Origin: Eledone cirrhosa
Taxonomy: Eukaryota
DNA length: 64,000 nucleotides
Assembly (NCBI GenBank): GCA_964016885.1
Contig: OZ024741.1
Location: 88,908,001 to 88,972,000, forward strand
Direction of reading: 5' to 3'
How positions within the stretch are numbered: position 1 is the stretch's first letter; each line of letters opens with the position of its first letter. Positions 7,436 through 60,083 of the stretch are shown piece after piece. Made by a program: the position numbers and the translations under genes. Under the pieces are notes generated by a model that worked only from the letters and a program-made list of their open reading frames with translations, was not told where the DNA came from and searched no databases.

Positions 7436-9529
7436 TCAGAGTTTTATACAGACACACACACATCCATGTGTGTGTGTATAAAACTCTGATCCATGTATGT
7501 GTGTGTGTGTGTAATGTATGAGCAAGACATGGCCTTCTGATCTGTGTAGAAAGACACTAATTCCACAGAACTCTCTTGAAACCATAATAATCAGTCCAAC
7601 CCATGCTAGCTTGGAAACCAAACAGAAAATGATGATAACGATGGTATAATATTTTTATTGTCACAGGGTTAGTGGATGGTGGTGAGGTTTACAGTGAAAT
7701 CAGATAAATGGAGGAAGAGGGGAACATGGTGTGTGTGTGTGTGTTTGTGTTCAGGCATGCATGCATGAACCCATAACTCCTGAATTTGTAAGGGCGCAGT
7801 AGTGACATGGCATATTTTAGGCACTCTCTTAACCTGGCGGAGTCCACCCCATTCCAGGTCTAAATACAGCCGATTTATTCCAGAGAAGGAGATAGAGAGT
7901 GATAGAGAGGAAGTGAGAAAGAGATATAGAAAAAAACTAACCCCAGTAGTAGACTGGTACTTTTTTTATCAACTTTCAAAGGATTAAAGGTAAAGTTGGA
8001 TCCAGCAGGATTTGAATTCAGAGAGTGTGGCTAGCCAAAAGAAATACCACAAAGCATTCTATCTGACATTTTAACGACTCTGCGAATACCCTGCATATGA
8101 AAAGGGCATATACAGTATATAAATGTGCAACTGAGACCCCAGAAGCCAATCAAGGAACTCCACAGATCCAAGAATACATTTATTACCAAAAGTAAATACT
8201 CACACCCAGCTATTATTCCTTAATGAACCAGTGCATGCTCAAAGTTGCCTAGCAATGCATAACTAAAACTAGGCCTATTAACATGGCCCATGCTTACCCA
8301 TCTTTCAGCAAATTTAGTGGAGAGTAGCACCCCCCATTCACTCACCCTCATCATCCTCTCCATGTGGAACTTCAAAAAATATCCATGAAGAGTGATGTGT
8401 CAATTCAGTCCTTTCAGTTGTGACCACCATAAAAACGTTTTTGTCATGTCCACCAGACAAAGGAAGATTGCGTCTTTCCCAGCCCCTCAAACACACACAA
8501 TGACTCCCCCACCCTCATGCACTCTAATACCCAAATGTTATGTTTCAATAAACAAAACAAAAAAAAACAATACATTTTTGATGTGTTAATTGTAACCAGA
8601 GATTTTGAAGTATTAGTGTAAATTAATGACCTGCAACAGATGTGTGTATCAAAAGTGGCTACCATAAAGATGAATAACTGTGCCCCAAACCTTGACAAAC
8701 AGTGTGCTCACATGATAGTTCAAATTTGTATGTGAAGACAATAGACTATCATGAGACAATGATGTGTGTCTCTAGTTCTGAAAAGAAATAGTAGCTGTCC
8801 ATCTGGTAGGCAATTGAAAAGTCACTGATATGCTATTAGTAAACAAACAATAGTAATTTGAACAGGGGAACCAACTGCATAGAAGCCTAACTGGTGATGT
8901 CAGCAGACTATCATAAGATTCTGGTGGTGGTTGGTTGGTATTGTCTATGTTTTGTTTTGGAACCTGAACACAGATCAGATACATTCCACATGCATACACA
9001 CAGAGACAGTCAAACAGACACAGAAGAAGATACTGATAGAGACGCACTACACACAAGAACACAGACACACTGGTGTGTATGTAATCATAACCACATACAC
9101 AGAGAAATAGTATTACCCTATACATACAATAGGCATGGACACTGATATGCATGGTAACAATCATAGAAAATACAAGACACACACAGTCTCACACACACAC
9201 TCCCTCGCCAATTCAAGTCCAATTTCACAGCTTGCTGCTCAAAAATACAATTAAACAACATCCCTGTAGTTCTTTATTGGAGAAATCTGGTTCAACACAC
9301 ATACACACACACAACGGTATGGTAAAATACACAGTGGTGGTAGCTGTGATGTTGATGGTTGTGGTGACTATGATGTTGATGATTGTTGTGGCTGTGATGG
9401 TGATTGTGGGTATTGTGTTGATAGTGCTGGTGAGTACTATGGTGTCTGTGTTGGTGGTAATAGTTACAGAGTATGGCTGTTTATAATAATAATGATGATG
9501 TTAATATTGAGTTATGATTGATAAGGATA

Positions 9530-11775
9530 ATTGTTTCTACTTTTGGCACAAGGCCGGCAATTACCCCAGTACATTATGGGTACTTTATTTTATCGACCCC
9601 ATAAGAATGAAAGGTAAAGCTAACCTCGGCGGGATTTGATAATGAATTTGATGGTGAATATGGTCAACTAGTAAAGGAACACATTAAATAATTTTAGTAT
9701 TTACAGGAAAAGAGGTAATTATAAACATTATTATAATAATATTAATATTAATGGTTTCTAATTTAAGCACAAGGCCAGTTAATTTGAGTGGAAGGGAATA
9801 TCGATTAAACCCAGTACTTAACCGGTATTTTTTCTTATTTATTATTAATAATAATTGTTTCTACTTTTGGCACAAGGCCAGCAATTACCCAGTACATTAC
9901 TGGTACTTTATTTTATCGACCCCATAAGGATGAAAGGTAAAGTAAACCTCGGCGGGATTTGAACTCAGAATGGCAAGGGCCGTAACTCTATGCTGCAAAG
10001 CATGGCGTCCGACCCCTCTACCAATACTGCCAATCCACAATATTGGTTTCTAATTTGAGCACAAAGCCTACAAACTTGAGAGGAGGATCAAATCAATTAA
10101 ATCAACTCTCCAGTAGTTGAATTGTACTTTATTGAACCGGGAAGGCATGAGAATTCTGAAAAGATTTTATCAGCATTGCTCTTTCAACCAACCCAAATCA
10201 CATTACTTCTCTGTAAAGAAGTTACAATTCCCCAGACTTATGAGGCACAAAGTAATCCTACTTGCGCAAGTGTCTTGAGAAAATGTACCTAGTGTATTTT
10301 GTACAGTGGTTGGTGAATGATTGGAGATAATATAGGATCGAGAGGACCTAAAGACATGACAACCATTCCAGAATTGGTGCCACAATAAAACATATCCAGT
10401 TCACTAAGTAAAGTAGTTAGTGTAAGGAAGAGCATCCGACAATAGTAATACTGCCAAAAATGTAATATATAGTGAGACATGGGCTTCCAACTTGTCTAAG
10501 AGGACAATAACTTTCAATAAGAAGTCTTGAACTGCAGCAACACATCTAGCCCATAGTTGCATAGTAAGAGGATGTAGAACAATGATGATCCAAATACTAT
10601 TTACTCTACTATTCAATCAGCCCATGTCACTGCACCTTCCCTAAATAACAATGTCAGAGAGAGCGACAGAGCAATTGATGAAAAATCTTGTAGAACTTCA
10701 AATTTAGCAAAAATTGCTTTCCCATTCAACTTTCTTCTAGTTTTTACATTTGATATTCATTCTTCCAAAAATTTTCCCTAAGAATGTTTCCAAATAAGCA
10801 GCTCTTATAAAGTTTGTATCTACGTTTGGCACAAGGCCAGCAATTATCCAGTGCATTACTGGTACTTTATTTTATTGACCCCCGTAAGGATGAAAGGCAA
10901 AGTTAACCTCGGCGGGATTTGAACTCAGACCGTAAAGAGACGTAACTATGTTAGAAAGCATGGCGTCCAATGTTTAAAAAATAGCTTTTAATAAATAATT
11001 ATTTCTACTTTTGGCACAAAGCCAGCAATTTTTCTTTCCCTTTCTTTTCTTTTTTTTTGGGGGGGGGGGGGGGGGGGGGGCATATTGGCCTCAGTGCATG
11101 GCTGGTACTTTATTTTATCCGGAAGGATAGGAGACAAAGTTGACTTCGGCAGGATTTGAACTCAGAATGTAAAGAACTGGAACATATGCTGCAAAGTATG
11201 TTGTCCAACGCATTAATGATTCTGCCAATCCAATAATTGTTTCTAATATAGACTGAAGGCCAGCAATTTAGGGGAGGGCAAAGTCGATTAAATCAACCCC
11301 AGAATTTTACTGGTGCTTTACTTTATCAACTCCAGAAGGATGAAAGGCAAGAACTCAGCATGTAAAGAAGCAGAACAAATAATGCAGTGATATTTCATCC
11401 GACACTATATCAATTCTGCCAATATCCAAAAATACTGATAATTATCATCATTTATCATCCCTCTTCCAGCAGTGTTCCTCTACTTGTCTCCTTTTTCATC
11501 TCCTTTGAGAGGTTCAACATCCTGAGATCTGCTTTCTCCTCTTTTAAATGTTTATAATAATAACTGTTTCTGATTTAGGCACAAGGTTAACAATTTGGAG
11601 GGAGGGGAAAGTCGATTAAATCGACCCCAGTGCATTACTGGTACTTTATTTTATCGACCCAGTAAAGATGAAAAGCAAAGCTAACCTTGGCGGGATTTGA
11701 ACTCAGAATATAAAGGGCCATAACTATATGCTGCAAAGGATGTTGTTCAACACTCTAATGAATCTGCCAATCCAA
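9530..11775 (-). mobile_element. cluster of at least 6 same-orientation Meta-like SINE copies (best: 9853-10038, 10815-10970, 11565-11775)
   Basis: Repeated blocks TTGTTTCTACTTTTGGCACAAGGCCAGCAATT...CCTCGGCGGGATTTGAACTCAG. Confidence 0.8.
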
Positions 11776-24871: not shown

Positions 24872-25398
24872 GGTACAGTCAGTCTACTGTACCCCAAGAT
24901 AAGGACAAGAGTGGGAAATTTTAGTACATTTGCTGAAATATAGCTCTAGATAGGACAAATGGGGAGACATTTAGGCACAGTTGCTTTACTATAGCCCTAA
25001 ATATGACAAGAGTGGAACATTTTAGTACAGCTGCTGAAATATAGCTCTAGATAGGACAATAGGGGAACATTTCAGTTGCTGAAATATAGTTCAAGAAAAG
25101 GACAAGAATGGGAGATTTTGGTACAGTTGCTGAAATATAGCCCTAGATAGGACAAGGGTGGGGAAATTTGGTACAGTTGCTAAAATACTTCCTTATACTA
25201 GGACAAGAGATGAAAGTTTTGGACAGTTGCTTTAACTGTACTCCTAGATAAGGACAAGAGTGGGAAATGTGCTAGAGTTGCTGAAATATTTCCCTAGATA
25301 GGATAAGAGGGGAAAATTTAGTACAGTTGCTGTACTGTACTCTTAGATAGGACAGGAAAGGGAAATTTCAGGTAGTTGCTTTACTATACTCCAAGATT
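24872..25398 (+). repeat. degenerate minisatellite, ~50-bp unit, ~11 copies
   Basis: Unit approximately GTACAGTTGCTGAAATATAGCCCTAGATAGGACAAGAGTGGGAAATTTT. Confidence 0.9.
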
Positions 25399-27581: not shown

Positions 27582-28141
27582 CAATATTTAGTTATGTCAT
27601 ATTATGTTCTTCATTCAAATCCTTTCAAGATTAAGTTCGTCTTTCAGCCTTTGGGTTCAATAAAATACATTTTCTTCTTTATTCACGAGAATTTCATGGA
27701 ACTCACATACTAACTATATCCTACTTTTCTACCCATTTATTCCTGAGAGGGCCATATGGGCAGAGTCCCTAGATATACTTCCCAGAGGGTCCTTTGGAGA
27801 CAACCATCTCCAAATAATCTGGCTGGATCTCCAAGTGAAATCAACCAAATTTATGGATGTTATCCAACCATTTAACTTGTGGTCTACCTCTGGGTTTCCT
27901 GCCCATAAAATCTGACATGTGATTCTTTCCTTAAACATTCTAACTACATGTCCATGGTATCATAGCTGTGATCTCATGAAAAATATATTGTAACCTTAAC
28001 AATTGGTAACTGGAGATTATATTTCAAACACTAATTCTGATAACAATATTCATTCAGCTAATAGTGAGATAAAAGAGAATTGCTACATTTTCCCACCCAA
28101 ACATTCCTCCTTAATTTCACTTCAAATTATAATATAGCAAT

Positions 28142-28320
28142 AATTGTTTCTACTTTAGGCACAAGGCCAGTAATTACCCAGTGCATTACTGGTACTTTTA
28201 TTTTATCGACCCCGTAAGGATGAAAGGCAAAGTCAACCTCGGCGGGATTTGAACTCAGATCGTAAAGGGACGTAACTATGCTGGAAAGCATGGCGTCCGA
28301 CCCTCTACCGATACTGCCAA
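28142..28320 (-). mobile_element. Meta-like SINE copy
   Basis: Matches the family consensus and is flanked by ATAGCAATAAT repeats. Confidence 0.85.
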
Positions 28321-31300
28321 TAGCAATAATATAGAGCTCCAATATAACAATAGATATTGTATATGTTCCAATAGATATTGTACATAAATACATATATATC
28401 CCCTCATTTGTTTTAAAATTCAAAATTGCATTTAACATGTGAAATATCAGAACATGATGCTCTAATAAAGTTGAAGACAATTTTTTTTAACAGAACTGAA
28501 ATATATAATTCTCAATCTCAAATTTCACTTCAAATAGCAATAATATAGAGCTCCAATATAACAATAGATATTGTATATGTTCCATATAGAGACAGAACTC
28601 CAATATAATAACAGATATTGTGTATGTTCCATACAGAGATAAAGAAAACAAATAAGAGTGTAATCTCCTGATGAAATAGTGTTGTATGTCAACTAATTCC
28701 TGTGGTTAAATAACTAGAGTCTAGATACATATTCAAAAGCTGCCAAAATGACAATGTTAAGCTACTGTGCATTGGACCTCCATCAGTTTCAACAATGAGT
28801 GTTCCAGTCGTCGATCAACAGAAGGGCATGCTTGTCAAATTAATGCACAGCTGAGGATTCAACAGACACACGTGGAGATTCAGCGTGACTGTGTGTGACA
28901 TGTCTGGCTCTTTGAATTACAGGTACAGTCCATCTGACAGGCTTCCAAACAGTTTCTATCTAGCCAATTTCACTCACAAGACATGGGTTAACTTAAGAAT
29001 ATGGTAAATGACACTTGCCAAGATATTACACAATGGAATCGAACTTAGGATGAAATGATTGTAAAGTGAACTCCATGCTGCATCCACTTTAAGCTACTGT
29101 ATTTGGAAAAGCACACAACTCAAAACAACTTTGCTGACTGTTGAAACTATTTAACTCTTTCCATCACCACCACCACCACCACCATTTAACATCTATTTTC
29201 CATTCTTGCATAGGTTAGATGTGTTGTCACATTCAGAGAGTAGACAGGCAGGTCAATAGACTGTCTTGCTCATGTTCCATATTGGTTTCTATGGCTGGAT
29301 GCCCTTCTTAATGCCAACCACTTCTGGCATATATTGGGTACATTTTCTTGCGGCACCAATACTACCATCTGATAGGGCGAGCTGGATGCTTTTTTTTTTT
29401 GTATTACCAGTACTACAGTGTAGGCTGAATGCATTTTATCATGGCATCAGCACTATTACCTTAGTGTGGACAGGGTGCCTTTTATTGGGGCACCAGTACT
29501 TCCACTTTATAAGATGGGCAAGGTGCATTTTTATTATGGCACCAGTGCTACCACTTTACAGGGTGGGCTGGGTGTATTTTTATTAGAGTGAGTTGCAACT
29601 GATGGTATGCTGAAGCATGCCTGGCTTTCTAATAAGGAGTTAGGCATGTGAATGAGGGAGGAGATTGGGGGAAAAATTATAGTGAGGGAGGGAAAATCAA
29701 GAATCCGAGGGAGCAGATTAAGTGGGGTGGAGGGGGGTTAGATAGTGAGGTGGTGATCGAAAAGGCAGTCTTGAGTTTTGTTACATCTGTCCACCCTTCT
29801 CTTAGTATTCGGAATGCAAAAGGTGCTAGATATGCTGATCTATTCACAAGAAAGATGATACATGAAATGAGAATACTAACAAAAAGTGACTTGCTATATG
29901 AGGAAGTCTTAAAGTCAACTAAGTAAAATCTAAAGTCCTAGTATGTAGAAATAACAGGACTCTGATTCCTTCAAGGAAATGGCCATGTTCAATGTGCAGA
30001 AAGGGAGTTGATAGGAATTCCATATTATGTACACAAGAGATGTAAAGGGATCACAGATAGGCTAACAAAGAACGTAGACTTTGTGGTCATTGCACAGCAG
30101 CAGTAAGTAACAAGAGCTCATATGAAACAGGCACTAGGTGAGGTGGTTGTGTTGGTAACACGACAAAAAGCACCCAGTTCACCCAGTAAAGTGGTCATGT
30201 TGACGACACGACAAGAAGCACCCAGTGCACCCTGTAAAGTGATCGTGTTGGTGACATGACAAAAAGCACACAGACGACTCTGTAAAGTGGTCGTGTTGGT
30301 GACACGACAAAACACACCCATTCTACCCTGTAAATACAGTTGGCATTAGGACGAGCATCCAGCCATAGAAACAGTTCTGTATGAATAAAACATGGTCACC
30401 AACTTGTCTAGCCCATACTAGTGTGGAAGGATGGAAATTAAATGATGATGATGATAAGTAAAGTGAGAACCTGTTAGAAAATGGTCAGGGAGCTACTACC
30501 TCGGCTAGCTATGAAGGGTTTCTATTTCAGAGTGAAAGGTAGATTATATGATGTATGCATATGAACTACAATGCTGCATGGACGTGAGGTCCAGGCCTTG
30601 AGCACAGAAAATCTGCGAAGATTGGAAAGTATTAAGGAACCAAGAGAAAAATTCAGCATAAGAGGGACCAGATGTAGTGTACATGAAAGGAGACTACAAA
30701 GTTATGAAAGATAACAAAATTATAAAGAACAGGGCCATCAAATATGATGGAATTTGTGGAAAAGGAAAACCTAAGAAACATGAAGAAGACTGACCATGAC
30801 ACTGGACATGCAAGCAGGATGTAACAAACGAAATGATAGTGTAGAGACTAAAAGGTACATCAACATTTAGGTCACCACTCCCACTGCCAATATTCCTCAT
30901 ACCTCCATGACACTAACCTTCCCTGTATGTCATTGCCCCCACCTCTCTGAGGATAGAAACAAATCAACACCTCAGTCTGCTTTCCCTCTTGTTATTGAAT
31001 GCCCCCCTCCTTACTATTTAAATTATCCCTACCTATCCCTAATCATACATACTGCATACAGAGTATTGTCAAAATCCCAACAACCTCTGATGCTAATTCA
31101 CCTAACTCATACTGAAAGATACAGTCCATATATAAAGTGGGCTATCTTCACTCAAACCCTACATATGTCCACGAATCTTATGACATTCTCCCACTCCACT
31201 TCACAGCCAGTCATCACTCTTCACTTCAAGGCCACCTCCATGATCCAACATTTGCTTTCACACTCTCTCCTTACCCTCTCAGTAAGCAATATGTAGGTGT

Positions 31301-35682: not shown

Positions 35683-35985
35683 TGTGGTTTTGTAGCTAGA
35701 TCCACAATAGCCTATTGTGTGTCCAGAAGGGATGGGCTGTTGTCGTTTTGGAACTAGATCTATGATGGCCTACAGTGTGTCCAGAAGAAAGGGGCTGTTG
35801 TGGTTTGGGAACTAGATCCACAATGGCCTACAGTGTGTCCAGAAGGGATGGGCTGTTGTGGATTTGTAGCTAGATCACAATGGCCTAGTGTGTCTAGAAG
35901 GGATGGGCTATTGTGGTTTTGTAGCTAGATCCACAATGGCCTACAGTGTGTCCAGAAGAGATGGGCTGTTGTGGTTTTGTAGCCA
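35683..35985 (+). repeat. minisatellite, ~58-bp unit, ~5 copies
   Basis: Unit approximately TGTGGTTTTGTAGCTAGATCCACAATGGCCTACAGTGTGTCCAGAAGGGATGGGCTGT. Confidence 0.9.
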
Positions 35986-43045: not shown

Positions 43046-43997
43046 TATTTAGAGATTAAACTCATAGTCGTTTACAATTAATCAGCTCAAAGAAAGAGGC
43101 ATTTCTGAGCAGTGAAATACAAGTTATATATTAATATATATGATGAACACAAACGTGTTTGTATTGTAAGAGACAAAGTTAGCTAGCATGAAATAAACTA
43201 ATTAAAGTGAATACAATTTGTCTGTCTCGATATAAGTCAATAAAGACAAGCTTATATTGGCAAAAGCCGTGATTCCTGGACAAATTTAAATTTCAAAATC
43301 CAAACCCGCTCCGTAGATGAATTTGAACTTCGAAACCCAAATATGTTTCGCAACGATGGTACATGAATTGAAAAATAAAGAGAATCGAAATGAAATTGAA
43401 ATAAAAAGTGAAATATCCAAATCTTCTGTGCTTATCAACAGGAATCCAGTAAAATTAGTACATTCTACCTTCAGATTAATTGTAAACGACTATGAGTTTA
43501 ATCTCTAAATATAATATAGTATATTGCTCCTTAACTGTAGAGCTGATCTTTAATCCCGTATAAGTGGCTGTTATTTCTAGCACCGGGAATACGGGATGGC
43601 TAGTATAGCTGGCTACACCACATGTAATCAGACCTGCAAATTTTTTGAAGGTGGAATGTACTAATTTTACTGGATTCCTGTTGATAAGCACAGAAGATTT
43701 GGATATTTCACTTTTTATTTCAATTTCGTTTCGATTCTCTTTATTTTTTAATTCATGTACCATCGTTGCGAAACATATTTGGGTTTCGAAGTTCAAATTC
43801 ATCTACGGAGCGGGTTTGGATTTTGAAATTTAAATTTGTCCAGGAATCACGACTTTTGCCAATATAAGCTTGTCTTTATTGACTTATATCGAGACAGACA
43901 AATTGTATTCACTTTAATTAGTTTATTTCATGCTAGCTATCTTTGTCTCTTACAATACAAACACGTTTGTGTTTATCATATATATTAATATATAACT

Positions 43998-44002
<5 letters not shown>
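43046..44002. repeat. nested long inverted repeats
   Basis: About 43118-43472 is the near-perfect reverse complement of about 43646-44002. In addition, about 43040-43083 is the reverse complement of about 43473-43517. Flanked by (TA)n. Confidence 0.9.
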
Positions 44003-44056
<54 letters not shown>

Positions 44057-44063
<7 letters not shown>

Positions 44064-44787
44064 GAGAAGAGAAATACTGAGTGGTTGCACATGGGTTACA
44101 TATTATAAAATTAGTCCCTCGTCAGTGATTTGCCAACCATCATTGGTATTTCATCGCATTAAAAATCATATACCTCAGGTTGGTGCGAGCAATAACTAAA
44201 AAAAGCTATTGGGACAAGTGAGTCGCGTAAAGCGAGTGAGACAAGTAAACAACATAGAAGGATAAAGCAAACCGAAGATAGGAAAAAAAACAAGCAACAT
44301 GGTTATCCGGTCAGCATAAACTGGGTGAATTTCATGAGCGTTCAAAATACAGACCGTCCGACGTGAGTGAGATGTGAGAAAGAAAGAAAGAACCCCACTA
44401 CCAACGAAACGGGAGGAAGTGAGAAGGGAAGAAACAGAGAGTGAATGAGTGGAAGTGCGAGGAAGAGGTCAGTCGAGAGAAAGTGTAACTGACAGAGGGG
44501 GCGAAAGAAGGTGAGAGTAACAGAGAGAACGGGGGAGCAGTGAGAGAGAAAGAGAGAAACAGACAAGCGCAGCCGAGGTAAATAGTATAAAAAACATGAG
44601 AAGAGGAATACTGCGTGGTTGCACATGGGTTACATATTATAAAATTAGTCCCTCGTCAGTGATTTGCCAACCATCATTGGTATTTCATCGCATTAAAAAT
44701 CATATACCTCGGGTTGGTGCGAGCAATAACTAAAAAAAGCTATTGGGACAAGTGAGTCGCGTAAAGCGAGTGAGACAAGTAAACAAC

Positions 44788-44790
<3 letters not shown>
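44057..44790 (-). mobile_element. non-coding element with 200-bp direct repeats (534-bp period) inserted in (TA)n
   Basis: 44057-44256 matches 44591-44790 with few mismatches. The spacer is GA-rich on +. Each repeat carries the structured hammerhead-like motif. Confidence 0.8.
44114..44215 (-). ncRNA. strand-permuted hammerhead-like RNA with kink-turn (copy A1; A2 at 44648-44749)
   Basis: Core segments GGUAUA, GAAAUACC and AAAUCA-CUGACGA. Helices covary with the copy at 48837-48938. Confidence 0.65.
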
Positions 44791-44829
<39 letters not shown>

Positions 44830-45130
44830 ACTGTCAAGGGTTTCCACAGAAAAGATGAAGGAAAAAGAGCGCTCAAGTTATCAATACAGCTGAATTATTA
44901 TCAATGTCTGTTCGACATAGTTAATCACTACCTTAAGTTTCAAACCATGCCCTATATTTGCCATAATACTTTATTATGGTTTATTTGGATCTTATTTTCA
45001 TCAACCTGATGAAAAGCATCCCTAAGTCGATCATAATTATATTTCATAACTAATTTACTTTCAAAAACCTAAGATAGTGATCACCTGCATCGAACTATTA
45101 ATAATAGACTTACACATTCAGACACGCGCA

Positions 45131-45173
<43 letters not shown>

Positions 45174-45292
45174 CTTTCGGGCCCTGGGTTCCTTCTTTTT
45201 CAGCATAAAAACAAGTCAAAATCGTATCTATGCAGAATTGAAAAAGTGATTATTTTCGTTAACAATTTATTGTCATAGGCTTTACAATATTT

Positions 45293-45481
45293 AGCGGTGG
45301 GTTGGCAGTATCGGTAGAGGGTCAGCCATGCTTTGCAAGCAAAGAGTTACGGCCCTTTATGATCTGAGTTCAAATTCCGCCGAGGTTAACTTTGCCTTTC
45401 ATCCTTACGGGGTCGATAAAATAAAATACCAGTAATGTACTGAAATAATTGCTGGCCTTGTGCCAGAAGTAGAAACAATTA
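45293..45481 (+). mobile_element. Meta-like SINE copy
   Basis: A and B boxes, family core and tail. Confidence 0.85.
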
Positions 45482-45769
45482 TTACATGTTATATATACCT
45501 CTATTTACTGTATATATATATCACTTATATGGAAACCTGCAGTATCAAGGTAACATATATGGGTTTACTGCAGATCTGTCAACTCTCTTCGTCCGACGGA
45601 GAGATCTCCAACCCACTTTGGGGTGGGTTAGAGGTCATCTCTTGTGAAAATGGGTATACTTTTATTATGTAAAATATCCTCTTTTTGCCTCATTTCTCCC
45701 CGTTTTGGGGCACTTTATTTCATGGTACTCCCCATTGGGGTTTTTAGTGGTTGGCAAGTCTGTTACTGG

Positions 45770-45850
45770 TACCTACTGTGTTAGACGACCGACTTACGAA
45801 CAAATCAACTAACGAACGATCTCTTGGAACGTAACTCGTTCGTAAGGGTG
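45770..45850. mobile_element. Tigger/pogo-like MITE fragment
   Basis: Repeated CTTACGAAC/CTAACGAAC and inverted GTTCGTAAG sub-terminal motifs. Confidence 0.4.
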
Positions 45851-45891
45851 AAAGCAGCGATTCTTTGCTTAAACTTTAATCTGTTATTTTA

Positions 45892-45987
<96 letters not shown>

Positions 45988-45998
45988 GTATATATATA

Positions 45999-46036
<38 letters not shown>

Positions 46037-46066
46037 AAATCAAAAGATGGTTAAAAGAGTTCTATG

Positions 46067-46137
46067 TATTTTATTATGCGCATTTCAAAAACAAATATCA
46101 TTATGGGATGATATTTGCGTTCTCATCAGATAAAATA
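46067..46137 (-). ncRNA. well-formed type I hammerhead ribozyme
   Basis: TATTTTAT-CTGATGA-GAACGCAAATATCAT(CCCATA)ATGATATTTGTTTTT-GAA-ATGCGCAT-A-ATAAAATA. Perfect 8-bp stem I, long stem II, palindromic stem III and an AUA site. Confidence 0.85.
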
Positions 46138-46756
46138 GGGAGACATGATATGAAGCTTAAAAAACACTTGTGAGCAGTGAAGTGTTAAATCAACATATGA
46201 AAAATAAAATAAGAGGGAGATGTATGAAATTGGAAAAAAAGGAAAGGAAGGGGGAAAGAAAAGGTAAGGAAGAGGAAGAAAAAATATAATAATAAGGAAA
46301 GGATGGCGGAGGAGGAGTATAAGAAGGAAGGATGAGAGAGGAGGAGAAAATGAGTGAGAGAGAGAGAGAGATAACTTTTAATACTGAGAAACACTGTCTC
46401 ACAGAGAAAAATTTAAAAAAACCGTTGTAAGATAATACATAATTTAAAAAAATTAAGAAATTAAAAGTTAATGAGGTTTATGAATGGTGATGCTTATGAT
46501 TAAAGAAAAAGGAATTAATTAGGGTCCAAGTTTGTTTCTATATATTGTAATAGGAAAAAGTAAATAATAGATTTAAATACGAGGAAGGAGAGAAGAAAGA
46601 AAAAATTCAAGGAAGAAAAAATATATAACGTCAAAAAAATATGTTTACAAAATTTCTCTAATGGTAATATTAGTATATATTAAAAATAAAAATTTGTATG
46701 GCCGAGAATATATTGTGCTACAATAAAACTCACCTCCTACATATATATATATATAT

Positions 46757-46937
46757 ATTGTTATACTTGGGGAGGGTCATATTGTTGCAATATTATTGCC
46801 AGAAATAATAACAGAACACACTCACTGTTTGGTTGCTTTTCGCTTCTGTATCTTTTATCTCTGCATAGTTAATTTATTTGGCAATCAACGTTTATCATTG
46901 ATTGACCAACGGTTAAAAATACAGATATCTATATATC

Positions 46938-47010
<73 letters not shown>

Positions 47011-47600
47011 TCTATCAAAGTTCTTTCGTTGCACATCTGCAGCATCATCAGAGGTACTATTATGTTCCCTCCTATCGTATTGTATTGTAATGTCTATGCC
47101 ATTTTTGTTTAATTAACTCATTTATTTATTTTTGTCTCCGTCTCTGCGCATGCGTTTGCGCGTGTGTATAATGTTTGAGTGTATGTGTTTTGGTTTTTGT
47201 ATTCTATCTTTGTTTACTAGTGTGTGTTTATATGTGTTTGTTGTTATTGTACTTGTGTATATATTTATTTATTTATTTACATTTCCCTTAAGACAGTATT
47301 GTTTGTTTGGGTATGATTGTTGTTATTCCATTCGTTTTTTCTGTTTAACTTTGGTTTTCTAAGCTCTATTTCACTTGCTTCTCTGATTTTGCCAACTGTT
47401 AAGTCATTTCTATGTTTAGATATTATTTTAATTTCTATGTTGTCTATATTACCGCCATGACTTTGTCTGGCGTGTTCGTATAATACTGAACCGTTTTTTT
47501 TTTGTCCTCCTAATTCCCCCCATGCTTCGAGCTGTCTCACCAATGTATGTCGTTGTCTTGTTTCTGAAAGTACCCTCTGTACATCTTATGCTATAGACTA
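46757..47600 (-). mobile_element. Penelope-like element 3' fragment (GIY-YIG end plus 3' non-coding region)
   Basis: [29 protein letters not shown]...REASEIELRKPKLNRKNEW. Homologous to 58577-59430. Confidence 0.8.
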
Positions 47601-47714
47601 CATATGTATATATATAGTTCGGAATATCAGAAAACTAAAAACAAAATATTGTCAAACGCAGGAGTAAATGTTACAAATATTATTAGTTTCAATCTTAGTG
47701 AGAGTAGGGTGTGT

Positions 47715-47779
<65 letters not shown>

Positions 47780-48313
47780 GAACTTCATCATCCTCTGGAC
47801 TCCGGATGCAAAGACAAGTTGGCCGGCTGTATATCACTTTGAAACCACTCATCGAGATGGACACATGCCTAAAAGGAACGGATCTACGTGCTGCAGTGAT
47901 CGACCGACGACTCTGGAGCCTGAACTTTGTCCAGGCATCACCACCAGCTCAAGGCATCGGATGACTGAAAAAGTATTGGCAGTTGCACTAAGACAGCGCT
48001 TAAGCGTAATGGGGGTGTGTATGAAAGCACACACTATGTTTTGGTGCAATAAATATATGGTAGTCTCGCTATCAAAGAAAAATACATTTTCCTAACGGTA
48101 AACAATTTTTTGTCTGTTTTTCTTGATGGACACGTCACAAAGTATCAGTAGTAGTCGAGAATGCCAGACAGCGTTGTTTCAAGATCCGTTAAGCTTTGAT
48201 CAGTGACATTCACTCAACTGATATTGTCATGGAGGTAGTATATGAAGTGATTCAATCATGTATCGAATACCACTCTGATTTGTTGTCTTCCTGGCTTTTA
48301 TACCGCAGGCACT

Positions 48314-48350
<37 letters not shown>

Positions 48351-48352
<2 letters not shown>

Positions 48353-49010
48353 GAAAATAAAAAGTTACGGGCGAAAGAGGGTATTATCCATCATCAGTTG
48401 TCTGTTAGGAATCATCGATATTTTTCGCGATGATCGAAAATACCCTCTTTCGCCCGTAGCTTTTTATTTTCATTATACTTAAATGCAACCACACAGCCCT
48501 CCGTTTTATTCATATAATTTTCCATATCCGCTGTGACCCGTATTTTCTCCTTCCTTGTTGCTATCAACTCTCCGCCTTCTCTCTCTTTCTCCCTCTTACT
48601 TTCTCTCACCCCCTCTGCTAGCCACCCTCTCTTCGCTAGCTCACTTCCTCCCTCGTCCGCCACTGTAAGCAGTCTCTTTTCTCTCTCACACTGCTACAGT
48701 CAAGACGTGTCTGTGTTCTCTCTTGTCACACTTGTCAGGACTTATGTCCGAAAAGGGTTTGCTGACTTGATATTTTTCCTCTCTTTACGTTGCTTTACTT
48801 TTCGTGTCCATTTTTTTTCTCTCTCTCCCCCTTTTTATCCCAATAACTTATTTTAGTTATTGATCGCACTAGGTTGAGATATCTTGTCTCTAACGCGAAG
48901 AAATATCGATGATTCCTAGCAGACAACTGATGATGGATAATACCCTCTTTCGCCCGTAACTTTTTATTTTCATTATACTTAATTGCAAACACACAGCCCG
49001 CCGTTTTATT

Positions 49011-49011
<1 letters not shown>
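48351..49011 (+). mobile_element. non-coding element in (TA)n with 500-bp-period direct repeat and 5' inverted copy of its 3' end
   Basis: 48439-48510 matches 48939-49010. 48351-48429 is the reverse complement of about 48894-48974. An unduplicated-in-the-inversion 3' tail of ~36 nt follows. Confidence 0.8.
48835..48940 (+). ncRNA. strand-permuted hammerhead-like RNA with kink-turn (copy B)
   Basis: Segments GAUAUC, GAAAUAUC and AGACAA-CUGAUGA. Aligns without gaps to 44114-44215 with compensatory changes. Confidence 0.65.
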
Positions 49012-49043
<32 letters not shown>

Positions 49044-51753: not shown

Positions 51754-52030
51754 GTCTGAGTTCAAATCCCGCCGAGGTTAACTTTGCCTTTCATCCTTAC
51801 GGGGTCGATAAAATAAAGTACCAGTAATGTACTGGGTAATTGCTGGCCTTGTGCCTAAAGTAGAAACAATTATGTTCTTACATGTTACAGCATAGTTACA
51901 TCCCTTTATGATCTGAGTTCAAATCCCTCTAAGGTTAACTTTGCCTTTCATCCTTACGGGGTCAATAAAATAAAGTACCAGTAATGTACTAGTAAATTGC
52001 TGGCCTTGTGCCAAAAGTAGAAACAATTAT
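51754..52030 (+). mobile_element. two adjacent 5'-truncated Meta-like SINEs
   Basis: The first is flanked by TSD ATTATGTTCTTACA (51740-51753 and 51869-51882). Confidence 0.85.
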
Positions 52031-52236
52031 CTTCTTTCATGTTTTTTCATGTTGATATCATTTATTAATATCTCTCTCTATAATATGAAACTGCAGAAGT
52101 TCGTTATGCCGACTCAGCAAGATAAAAGGGTTGTTCTTGGCCATAAAATATCCCTGTCTCCTGACAGGATACACACACATATACATATGGGTGTATGTGT
52201 GGGTGTTTATGTACATATTATATATGTATATATACG

Positions 52237-58508: not shown

Positions 58509-58546
<38 letters not shown>

Positions 58547-58576
58547 GTATGTATATATATGTATATATATATATAT

Positions 58577-60083
<1,507 letters not shown>

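Follow-up and report, generated by a model that had tools for sequence, protein, structure and literature searches.

The window analysed here is a 64,000-nt stretch of the Eledone cirrhosa genome (GenBank assembly GCA_964016885.1, contig OZ024741.1, positions 88,908,001 to 88,972,000 of the forward strand; positions below count from its first letter). It contains copies of two families of non-coding repeats, named A and B, each carrying an RNA motif that a preliminary description had read as a pseudoknotted, hammerhead-like RNA. We compared these copies with the rest of the genome, with metagenome contigs and with published consensus sequences. Judged by this comparison, the ribozyme fold is real and conserved, and it is very probably a hammerhead that cleaves at the predicted site. 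Our explanation as a whole, which we hold to be probable, is that the repeats are non-coding units like Penelope-like elements (PLEs), each with one monomer-folding hammerhead of the SGC class, named for its strand order (cleavage-site block, GAAA block, CUGA block). The elements and the parts of their predicted ribozymes are as follows.

44058 to 44790, minus strand: putative non-autonomous retroelement of family A, made of 1.37 units of 534 nt arranged head to tail (self-alignment, unit mapping)
44114 to 44215, minus strand: predicted family-A ribozyme, copy A, 102 nt (pair bookkeeping and covariation)
44215-44211 with 44118-44114, minus strand: closing helix P0 of copy A; 44210-44191: its P1 hairpin
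44188-44184 with 44158-44154, minus strand: P2 of copy A; 44183-44178 with 44138-44133: its P3, the I-II helix
44174-44170 with 44149-44145, minus strand: stem III of copy A; 44168-44163 with 44131-44126: its stem I
44152-44150, minus strand: GAA of copy A; 44125-44119: its CUGACGA
44168 to 44169, minus strand: predicted cleavage site of copy A, 3' of A44169 (NUH = AUA), placed by hammerhead numbering
44139 to 44177, minus strand: predicted kink-turn of copy A, UGA 44177-44175 opposite the bulge AAU 44144-44142 and GAU 44141-44139
44648 to 44749, minus strand: second family-A ribozyme copy, in the upstream unit, with kink-turn strand CGA (self-alignment)
48347 to 49016, plus strand: family-B element between (TA)n tracts (self-alignment, unit mapping)
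48837 to 48938, plus strand: predicted family-B ribozyme, copy B, 102 nt (pair bookkeeping and covariation)
48842-48861, plus strand: P1 of copy B; 48864-48868 with 48894-48898: its P2; 48869-48874 with 48914-48919: its P3
48875-48877 (UGA) with 48908-48913, plus strand: predicted kink-turn of copy B; 48878-48882 with 48903-48907: its stem III
48884-48889 with 48921-48926, plus strand: stem I of copy B; 48927-48933: its CUGAUGA; predicted cut after C48883
48391 to 48423, minus strand: inverted copy of ribozyme B truncated to its 3' half, from the GAAA block to CUGAUGA (self-alignment)

Copy A, its duplicate and copy B lie where the preliminary description had placed them, and A and B align over 102 nt without gaps and with 28 differing positions, the number it had estimated by hand. 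Copy A differs from its duplicate (44749 to 44648) at one position, UGA to CGA at the kink-turn. The segment order that had been laid out was confirmed in both copies: the 5' half runs P0, P1 hairpin, P2, P3, UGA, stem III, H17, stem I and a 4-nt linker, and the 3' half runs partner of P2, GAA, partner of stem III, a 3-nt bulge, GAY, partner of P3, 1 nt, partner of stem I, CUGANGA and partner of P0. H17 corresponds to A44169 in copy A and to C48883 in copy B, in line with the earlier assignment. Eight pairs change on both sides between A and B (three in P3, three in stem I, one in stem III and one in the closing helix P0), in agreement with the at least eight compensatory changes announced before, and the pair flanking the core (positions 10.1/11.1), U-G in A and A-U in B, is a possible ninth. 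Copy B is imperfect in that its distal P2 pair is mismatched and one of its P3 pairs is U-U. Neither CUGANGA nor GAAA occurs on the opposite strands of the A and B copies.

The blocks of both copies thus follow the order S-G-C, as opposed to the cyclic C-G-S order and pseudoknot-free core of hammerhead types I, II and III, outside which the motif had already been placed; an Rfam scan at the gathering threshold likewise returned no match across the whole 64-kb window. Three arms (stem I; stem II, which is P2; and stem III with the kink-turn and P3) link a catalytic and a distal junction, with linkers of 4, 0 and 1 nt. The strand 3' of the CUGANGA core pairs with the 5' leader to form P0; both chain ends exit through stem II into this helix, and the chain opens inside stem II at the P0/P1/P2 junction, the 5' strand of P2 being supplied from upstream. 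P1 is optional and is missing from a further family, C. Positions 10.1/11.1 are able to pair in most non-coding families, and in the forms found in long interspersed nuclear elements (LINEs, described below) they are the first P0 pair and the last P2 pair, an assignment that gives a near-perfect four-way junction. In the proposed fold the kink-turn would bend arm III back and P3 would tie stems I and II together at their ends, in place of the contact between loop I and loop II. We consider a doubly pseudoknotted monomer of this kind fairly likely.

A core pattern with fixed spacing matched the 3.0-Gb host genome, which is rich in (TA)n, 9,747 times, against no match for the reversed-pattern control. 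A version excluding the A/B-type stem III gave 329 matches against 2 and uncovered further families, and one with a shorter linker gave 53 against 12, the rows listed resembling damaged copies. DNA searches yielded 1,727 first-look candidates for B and 833 for A, and the 40 A matches that were scored were all identical. From the matches we assembled a covariation alignment of 15 hand-picked sequences with well-formed helices, 11 from this genome and 4 from metagenome contigs. In this alignment, whose rows were picked for helix quality and whose related rows inflate shuffle tests, 93.9% of paired cells can pair, compared with 29-44% for slid partners, and two-sided changes occur in 19 of the 22 pairs (stem I 6/6, stem III 4/5, P2 4/5, P3 5/6). 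The covariation first noticed between two copies is therefore borne out in a larger alignment, and a hammerhead core flanked by stems I and III, as had been proposed, is present, A and B both having CUGANGA, GAAA, NUH and a U16.1-A15.1 pair. The metagenome matches, a less biased set, separate sharply: 6 of 120 form 21-22 of the 22 pairs and the other 114 form at most 15. None of the 9 pattern matches in viral contigs has the helices. The 4-nt linker from stem I to P2 (alignment columns 28-31), left free by the pattern, is UUAA-like in all 15 rows, with its last A invariant; a similar linker occurs in Acropora members of the Naiad PLEs discussed below, and a tertiary contact is possible. Seven common variants within copy A are listed from public DNA contigs. 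Six of them either preserve a pair or affect H17, N7 or a linker, and the remaining one disrupts the distal P2 pair; the usual variant at the cut site is A to C, a permitted H.

The preliminary description had also inferred an undescribed hammerhead topology, and this claim does not stand. Eckert et al. in 2023 (PMC10085705) described hammerheads of types SGC, CSG and GCS, with cleavage at the predicted site and rescue of stems; in the sections at hand, type-SGC RNAs cleave in cis and during transcription, need all four stems and have rates on the slow side, and of the three types only a single GCS candidate was found in a known organism's genome. Type SGC (HRIMA-1 and variants) has in common with the window copies the S-G-C order, two pseudoknots, and a short connection between stems I and II on one side with a helix joining them on the other. 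The published forms differ in having an intact stem II after CUGANGA and in being open between the I-II helix and stem III, whereas in the window copies the kink-turn bridges this gap and the opening lies within stem II, by way of P0/P1. As read from this comparison of strands, the window fold would function in the manner of SGC and represents another circular opening of that type. Type CSG, represented in that work by two metagenome sequences, has the same reversed cyclic order. The published descriptors ask for CUGAUGAG or CUGAUGAUG together with CGAAA and an uninterrupted stem II; the CGAAA and stem II requirements exclude RNAs of the window type. The words 'kink' and 'k-turn' are absent from the main text of PMC10085705, and 'kink', 'Octopus' and 'Acropora' from the text of its supplement, although figures and alignments may differ. 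Neither the split stem II with P0/P1/P2, nor the kink-turn, nor an occurrence in an animal genome, nor a link to retrotransposons turned up in a literature search whose scope excluded subscription journals and Repbase reports. What is new here is the animal genomic repeat, the split stem II with its kink-turn and the link to two classes of retrotransposon, the strand order being already known.

Copies A and B carry, between two helices, a 3-nt bulge followed by G-A and A-G pairs, which is the arrangement of a kink-turn. The box C/D consensus is RUGAUGA and CUGA; copy A has AUGAUGG and CUGA, and copy B AUGAUUC and UUGA. The kink-turn-shaped element that had been proposed in arm III stands; the full box C/D motif is absent from both copies. 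Position L2 is a purine in all 15 aligned sequences, although the pattern left it free, and L3 is U in 10 of the 15. The same kink-turn is present, by eye and therefore independently of the pattern, in the 3' ends of the Octopus consensus elements Naiad_Obim and Naiad_Ovul, as printed in the supplement passages described below. Folding induced by ions follows rules for the 3b-3n pair (PMC4382518, from the part of that paper available); this pair is U-U in A and B, which agrees with neither rule, while 3b is C in 8 of the 15 aligned kink-turns, a choice that favours folding free of protein. Other bulges replace the kink-turn in Acropora Naiads and in one LINE subfamily of this genome, and this exchange points to a requirement for a bend rather than to a protein switch. 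That the element is truly kinked in the predicted fold seems to us likely.

The units themselves are about 500-530 nt long and non-coding, without an open reading frame (ORF); each has one hammerhead, and they form tandems. The family-A element in the window abuts (TA)n at 43978-44057 with its 3' end, and the family-B element consists of an inverted 5' piece (48347-48429, minus strand), a unit of about 500 nt and a short 3' repeat (48929-49016). We surveyed 30 family-A loci, two pairs of which overlap. Of these, 14 are more than one unit long, 29 terminate in (TA)n and 4 show an inverted piece next to the 5' end; family-B copies have variable 3' extensions. The copies are continuous across the predicted cut site, and the 5' ends of the family-A loci, which start anywhere from unit position 195 to 485, show no pile-up at that site (unit position 423). 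A non-coding unit, tandems, one hammerhead per unit, insertion at a microsatellite and inverted 5' pieces are traits of retrozymes and non-autonomous PLEs, and families A and B are probably non-autonomous retroelements of this Penelope-like, retrozyme kind. One locus (L079:1-3059) is an array of about six units of about 515 nt, 92-94% alike, each with a ribozyme. Non-LTR retrozymes (that is, lacking long terminal repeats), or PLE pseudo-LTR hammerheads, were reportedly treated by Cervera and de la Pena in 2014 and 2020, and their hammerheads are of canonical order (type I). The window units resemble them, as presented in bioRxiv 10.64898/2026.07.22.740005, in being non-coding, tandem and PLE-derived with one hammerhead per unit; the available text of that preprint makes no mention of pseudoknot, kink or octopus. 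A Neptune-like PLE lying beside a family-C copy (L062) was considered as a partner and rejected, as it is on the opposite strand and has a canonical hammerhead of its own.

PLEs, and the Naiads among them, are known to target (TA)n and to leave partial tandems and inverted 5' pieces, and Naiads were said to lack canonical hammerheads, some being marked 'core' or 'half core' (Craig et al. 2021, PMC8557442, in the passages seen). We inspected the supplement passages of that paper that contain any of ten eight-letter words, a subset of its 54 consensus sequences. Within this subset the SGC order was recognised by eye in seven Naiad 3' regions (three from Acropora, Naiad_Obim, Naiad_Ovul and one each in supplement parts 12 and 19); six others, in supplement parts 13-16 and including Naiad-2_Nbra and Naiad-3_Nbra, show, again by eye, the CSG order. 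Naiad_Obim and Naiad_Ovul have the same fold and P1 loop as the window copies, in addition to the kink-turn, and the window families appear to resemble this Octopus version most. The likeness to Naiads is therefore one of (TA)n targets, partial tandems, inverted 5' pieces and a fold shared with Octopus and Acropora consensus 3' ends; the difference is that the window elements have no ORF, whereas Naiads encode an N-terminal GIY-YIG, a CxC motif and a reverse transcriptase. A family-specific pattern for the Octopus Naiad ribozyme had no match in this genome. Five bivalve Naiads (CGi, Sglo, Olur, Tgra, Pmar) share, by eye, another conserved, pairing-rich motif of about 80 nt shortly after the stop codon, which is possibly a ribozyme of another class.

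A second class of retrotransposon came to light through the metagenome. Six contigs are structured, five of the six derived from one sample. In five of the six the ribozyme lies 3' of the coding sequence for the C-terminus of a LINE protein with a restriction-like endonuclease; the ORFs are clear in L207 and L198, similar DNA is present in L153, L249 and L250, and L196 keeps only the last ~50 nt. A search of this genome with the L198 protein, and with no RNA pattern, found a LINE family with reverse transcriptase and restriction-like endonuclease (RT-RLE). In 12 of its 15 best loci the 3' untranslated region (UTR) has, just past the stop codon, the GAAA-then-CUGANGA fold with P0, P1, P2, P3, III and I, its kink-turn strand being the variant AGAA. 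Most copies have a single ribozyme at the 3' end; they are about 90-96% alike and can be tandem, as at L296 (L296:4441-8260), a head-to-tail tandem with a 3,599-nt unit. The junction between the 3' end and the next sequence is identical at two loci, L296 and L303. No full-length copies starting at the cut site were found, and L297 and L298 are 5'-truncated. Among 36 further loci from 150 protein matches, other subfamilies keep the same block order, one of them with a plain bulge in place of the kink-turn; an older subfamily (L307, L321-L323, L325, L330) has a 3' UTR of about 300 nt and the same SGC fold and UUAA linker, and lacks the kink-turn.

The LINE protein is similar to RVT_1 and to R2-like reverse transcriptases, with close relatives in fishes and lancelets and no match in viral contigs. 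Its C-terminal part is 51-55% identical to Takifugu Q76IN2 and Tetraodon Q7T1J8, which we take to be HEROFr and Zebulon (HEROTn/Zebulon), presumably of the HERO clade; Zebulon is said to be a tandem-forming LINE. The C-terminal region at L296 is 71-74% identical to teleost proteins P0002-P0011, which is high for such distant hosts, and horizontal transfer of the LINE is possible. Known LINE ribozymes are, in the literature covered, mostly 5' and like that of hepatitis delta virus, in contrast to the 3'-UTR hammerhead of this HERO-like LINE; the search described above found no published ribozyme in HERO LINEs.

Since this LINE is the only autonomous element found in this genome with an intact ribozyme of this fold, and since its copies are highly alike and can be tandem, the ~530-nt families might be partners of the HERO/Zebulon-like LINE, in the manner of short interspersed nuclear elements (SINEs), and not of a PLE. 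We think this unlikely, because the families show the PLE traits of inverted 5' pieces, (TA)n ends at 29 of 30 loci and variable family-B 3' extensions, and because in kink-turn and P1 loop they are closer to the Octopus Naiads than to the LINE with its AGAA variant. Similarly improbable, to our mind, is that the fold serves mainly as a protein-binding module at the 3' end, recognised by the retrotransposon reverse transcriptase or, at the kink-turn, by Snu13/15.5K, with slow or protein-switched cleavage sparing full-length RNA for target-primed reverse transcription. The predicted cut in the LINE would take off the final ~85 nt, the stretch in which priming begins, and copies nonetheless retain that end; the U-U at 3b-3n of A and B and the slowish published SGC rates (PMC10085705, sections as above) would fit the same idea. 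Every catalytic nucleotide is, on the other hand, kept across two unrelated retrotransposon classes, more than half of the aligned kink-turns have the 3b that favours protein-free folding, and some families have no kink-turn at all.

The active form could also be a domain-swapped dimer or a fold between neighbouring units, fully nested, in which the S and C blocks of one unit meet the G block of a second, as in the dimeric minimal hammerheads of PLEs. Such a structure can be drawn without pseudoknots, and tandem elements are frequent (14 of 30 loci). Its energy, when the tandem in the window was constrained to the swapped fold, is -107.5 kcal/mol versus -113.6 kcal/mol for the local folds, a value for the latter that does not yet include stems I and P2; the free minimum free energy (MFE) of the tandem, -126.4 kcal/mol, corresponds to neither. 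Only a monomer needs short linkers and a bent arm III, most LINE copies have a single ribozyme at the 3' end, and the published SGC RNAs cleave while being transcribed (PMC10085705, same sections), all of which leaves the swapped form with a small probability. Chance pairing in an ordinary repeat, with which modest local folding z-scores would agree, is refuted by covariation across unrelated families and hosts and by the 9,747 genome matches against none for the control.

Several observations weigh against the reading that we prefer, namely PLE-like units with a monomeric SGC-class hammerhead. The catalytic core is invariant in all 15 aligned rows (several families here and the 4 metagenome contigs), and this conservation, together with that of UGA and GA, is by construction because the fixed-spacing selection pattern demands these letters. 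Among top BLAST hits, core mismatches number 5/704 compared with 5/2420 elsewhere for copy A, and 11/512 compared with 69/1760 elsewhere, only somewhat fewer, for copy B; as the core is not protected in individual copies, selection would act on master elements and not on each copy. The pair G10.1-C11.1 is not conserved, being G-C in 4 of the 15 rows. Neither the nested MFE fold of copy B nor the free MFE fold of the A tandem corresponds to the proposed structure, local folding z-scores are only -1.6 to -2.3, and stem I of copy A is weak as a duplex (-2.3 kcal/mol). As to the elements, the core was seen in none of the six bivalve Naiad 3' ends viewed in the supplement passages, the Naiad copies in this genome are decayed and an intact attached ribozyme was present in none of 16 fetched stretches, and 11 of 16 older LINE remnants lack a GAAA-then-CUGANGA match.

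The mechanism that we propose for the PLE-like units starts from a cut 3' of H17, by which tandem or read-through transcripts would give unit-length RNAs that could then be re-joined into circles. The reverse transcriptase of a PLE would prime at a nick in (TA)n, roughly 110 nt 3' of the cut, and continue copying through the re-joined site and round the circle; arrays, partial tandems and inverted 5' pieces would be the products. There is no break in the copies at the cut site, and their end is fixed at about 110 nt beyond it, which implies a template that was uncut, re-joined or jumped. A circle would explain the tandems both in the PLE-type units and in the LINE, and we lean slightly towards circles with rolling reverse transcription. 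The ribozyme module of these units is also that of the 3' UTRs of autonomous Naiad PLEs and of HERO/Zebulon-like RT-RLE LINEs. A broader proposal, which we offer as speculative and somewhat doubtful, is that non-circularly permuted hammerheads (SGC with split stem II, in many cases bent by a kink-turn; CSG in other Naiads) are a widespread 3'-end module of Naiad PLEs, HERO/Zebulon LINEs and non-coding parasites, that the RNA is cut and circularised, which would explain tandem insertions, and that the families with a kink-turn are gated by host Snu13/15.5K.

Elsewhere in the window, hammerhead cores of canonical order (CUGANGA, stem II, GAAA) lie at 47020-47070 (minus strand) and about 58790-58830 (minus strand), in the 3' region of Neptune-like PLEs; the Neptune-like element at about 58530-59840 (minus strand) also has remnants of a reverse-transcriptase thumb and GIY-YIG. 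An abundant, dispersed SINE-like repeat occurs at 1694-1860, 9525-9986, 28138-28303, 45363-45494, 51755-52043 and other places, and minisatellites at 24897-25368 (50-nt units), 30143-30334 (48-nt) and 35683-35983 (58-nt).

With these copies, non-circularly permuted hammerheads would move from rare environmental contigs to about ten thousand copies in one animal genome. In the sections of PMC10085705 at hand, a direct link from the I-II helix to the distal stem III was regarded as not obviously compatible with the crystal structure, and the kink-turn is a candidate answer to the question of how the two meet. If our reading is true, it would provide Naiads with the ribozyme reported as missing from them. 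It would also mean that an RT-RLE LINE carries a hammerhead in its 3' UTR, a place in which cleavage seems opposed to target-primed reverse transcription.

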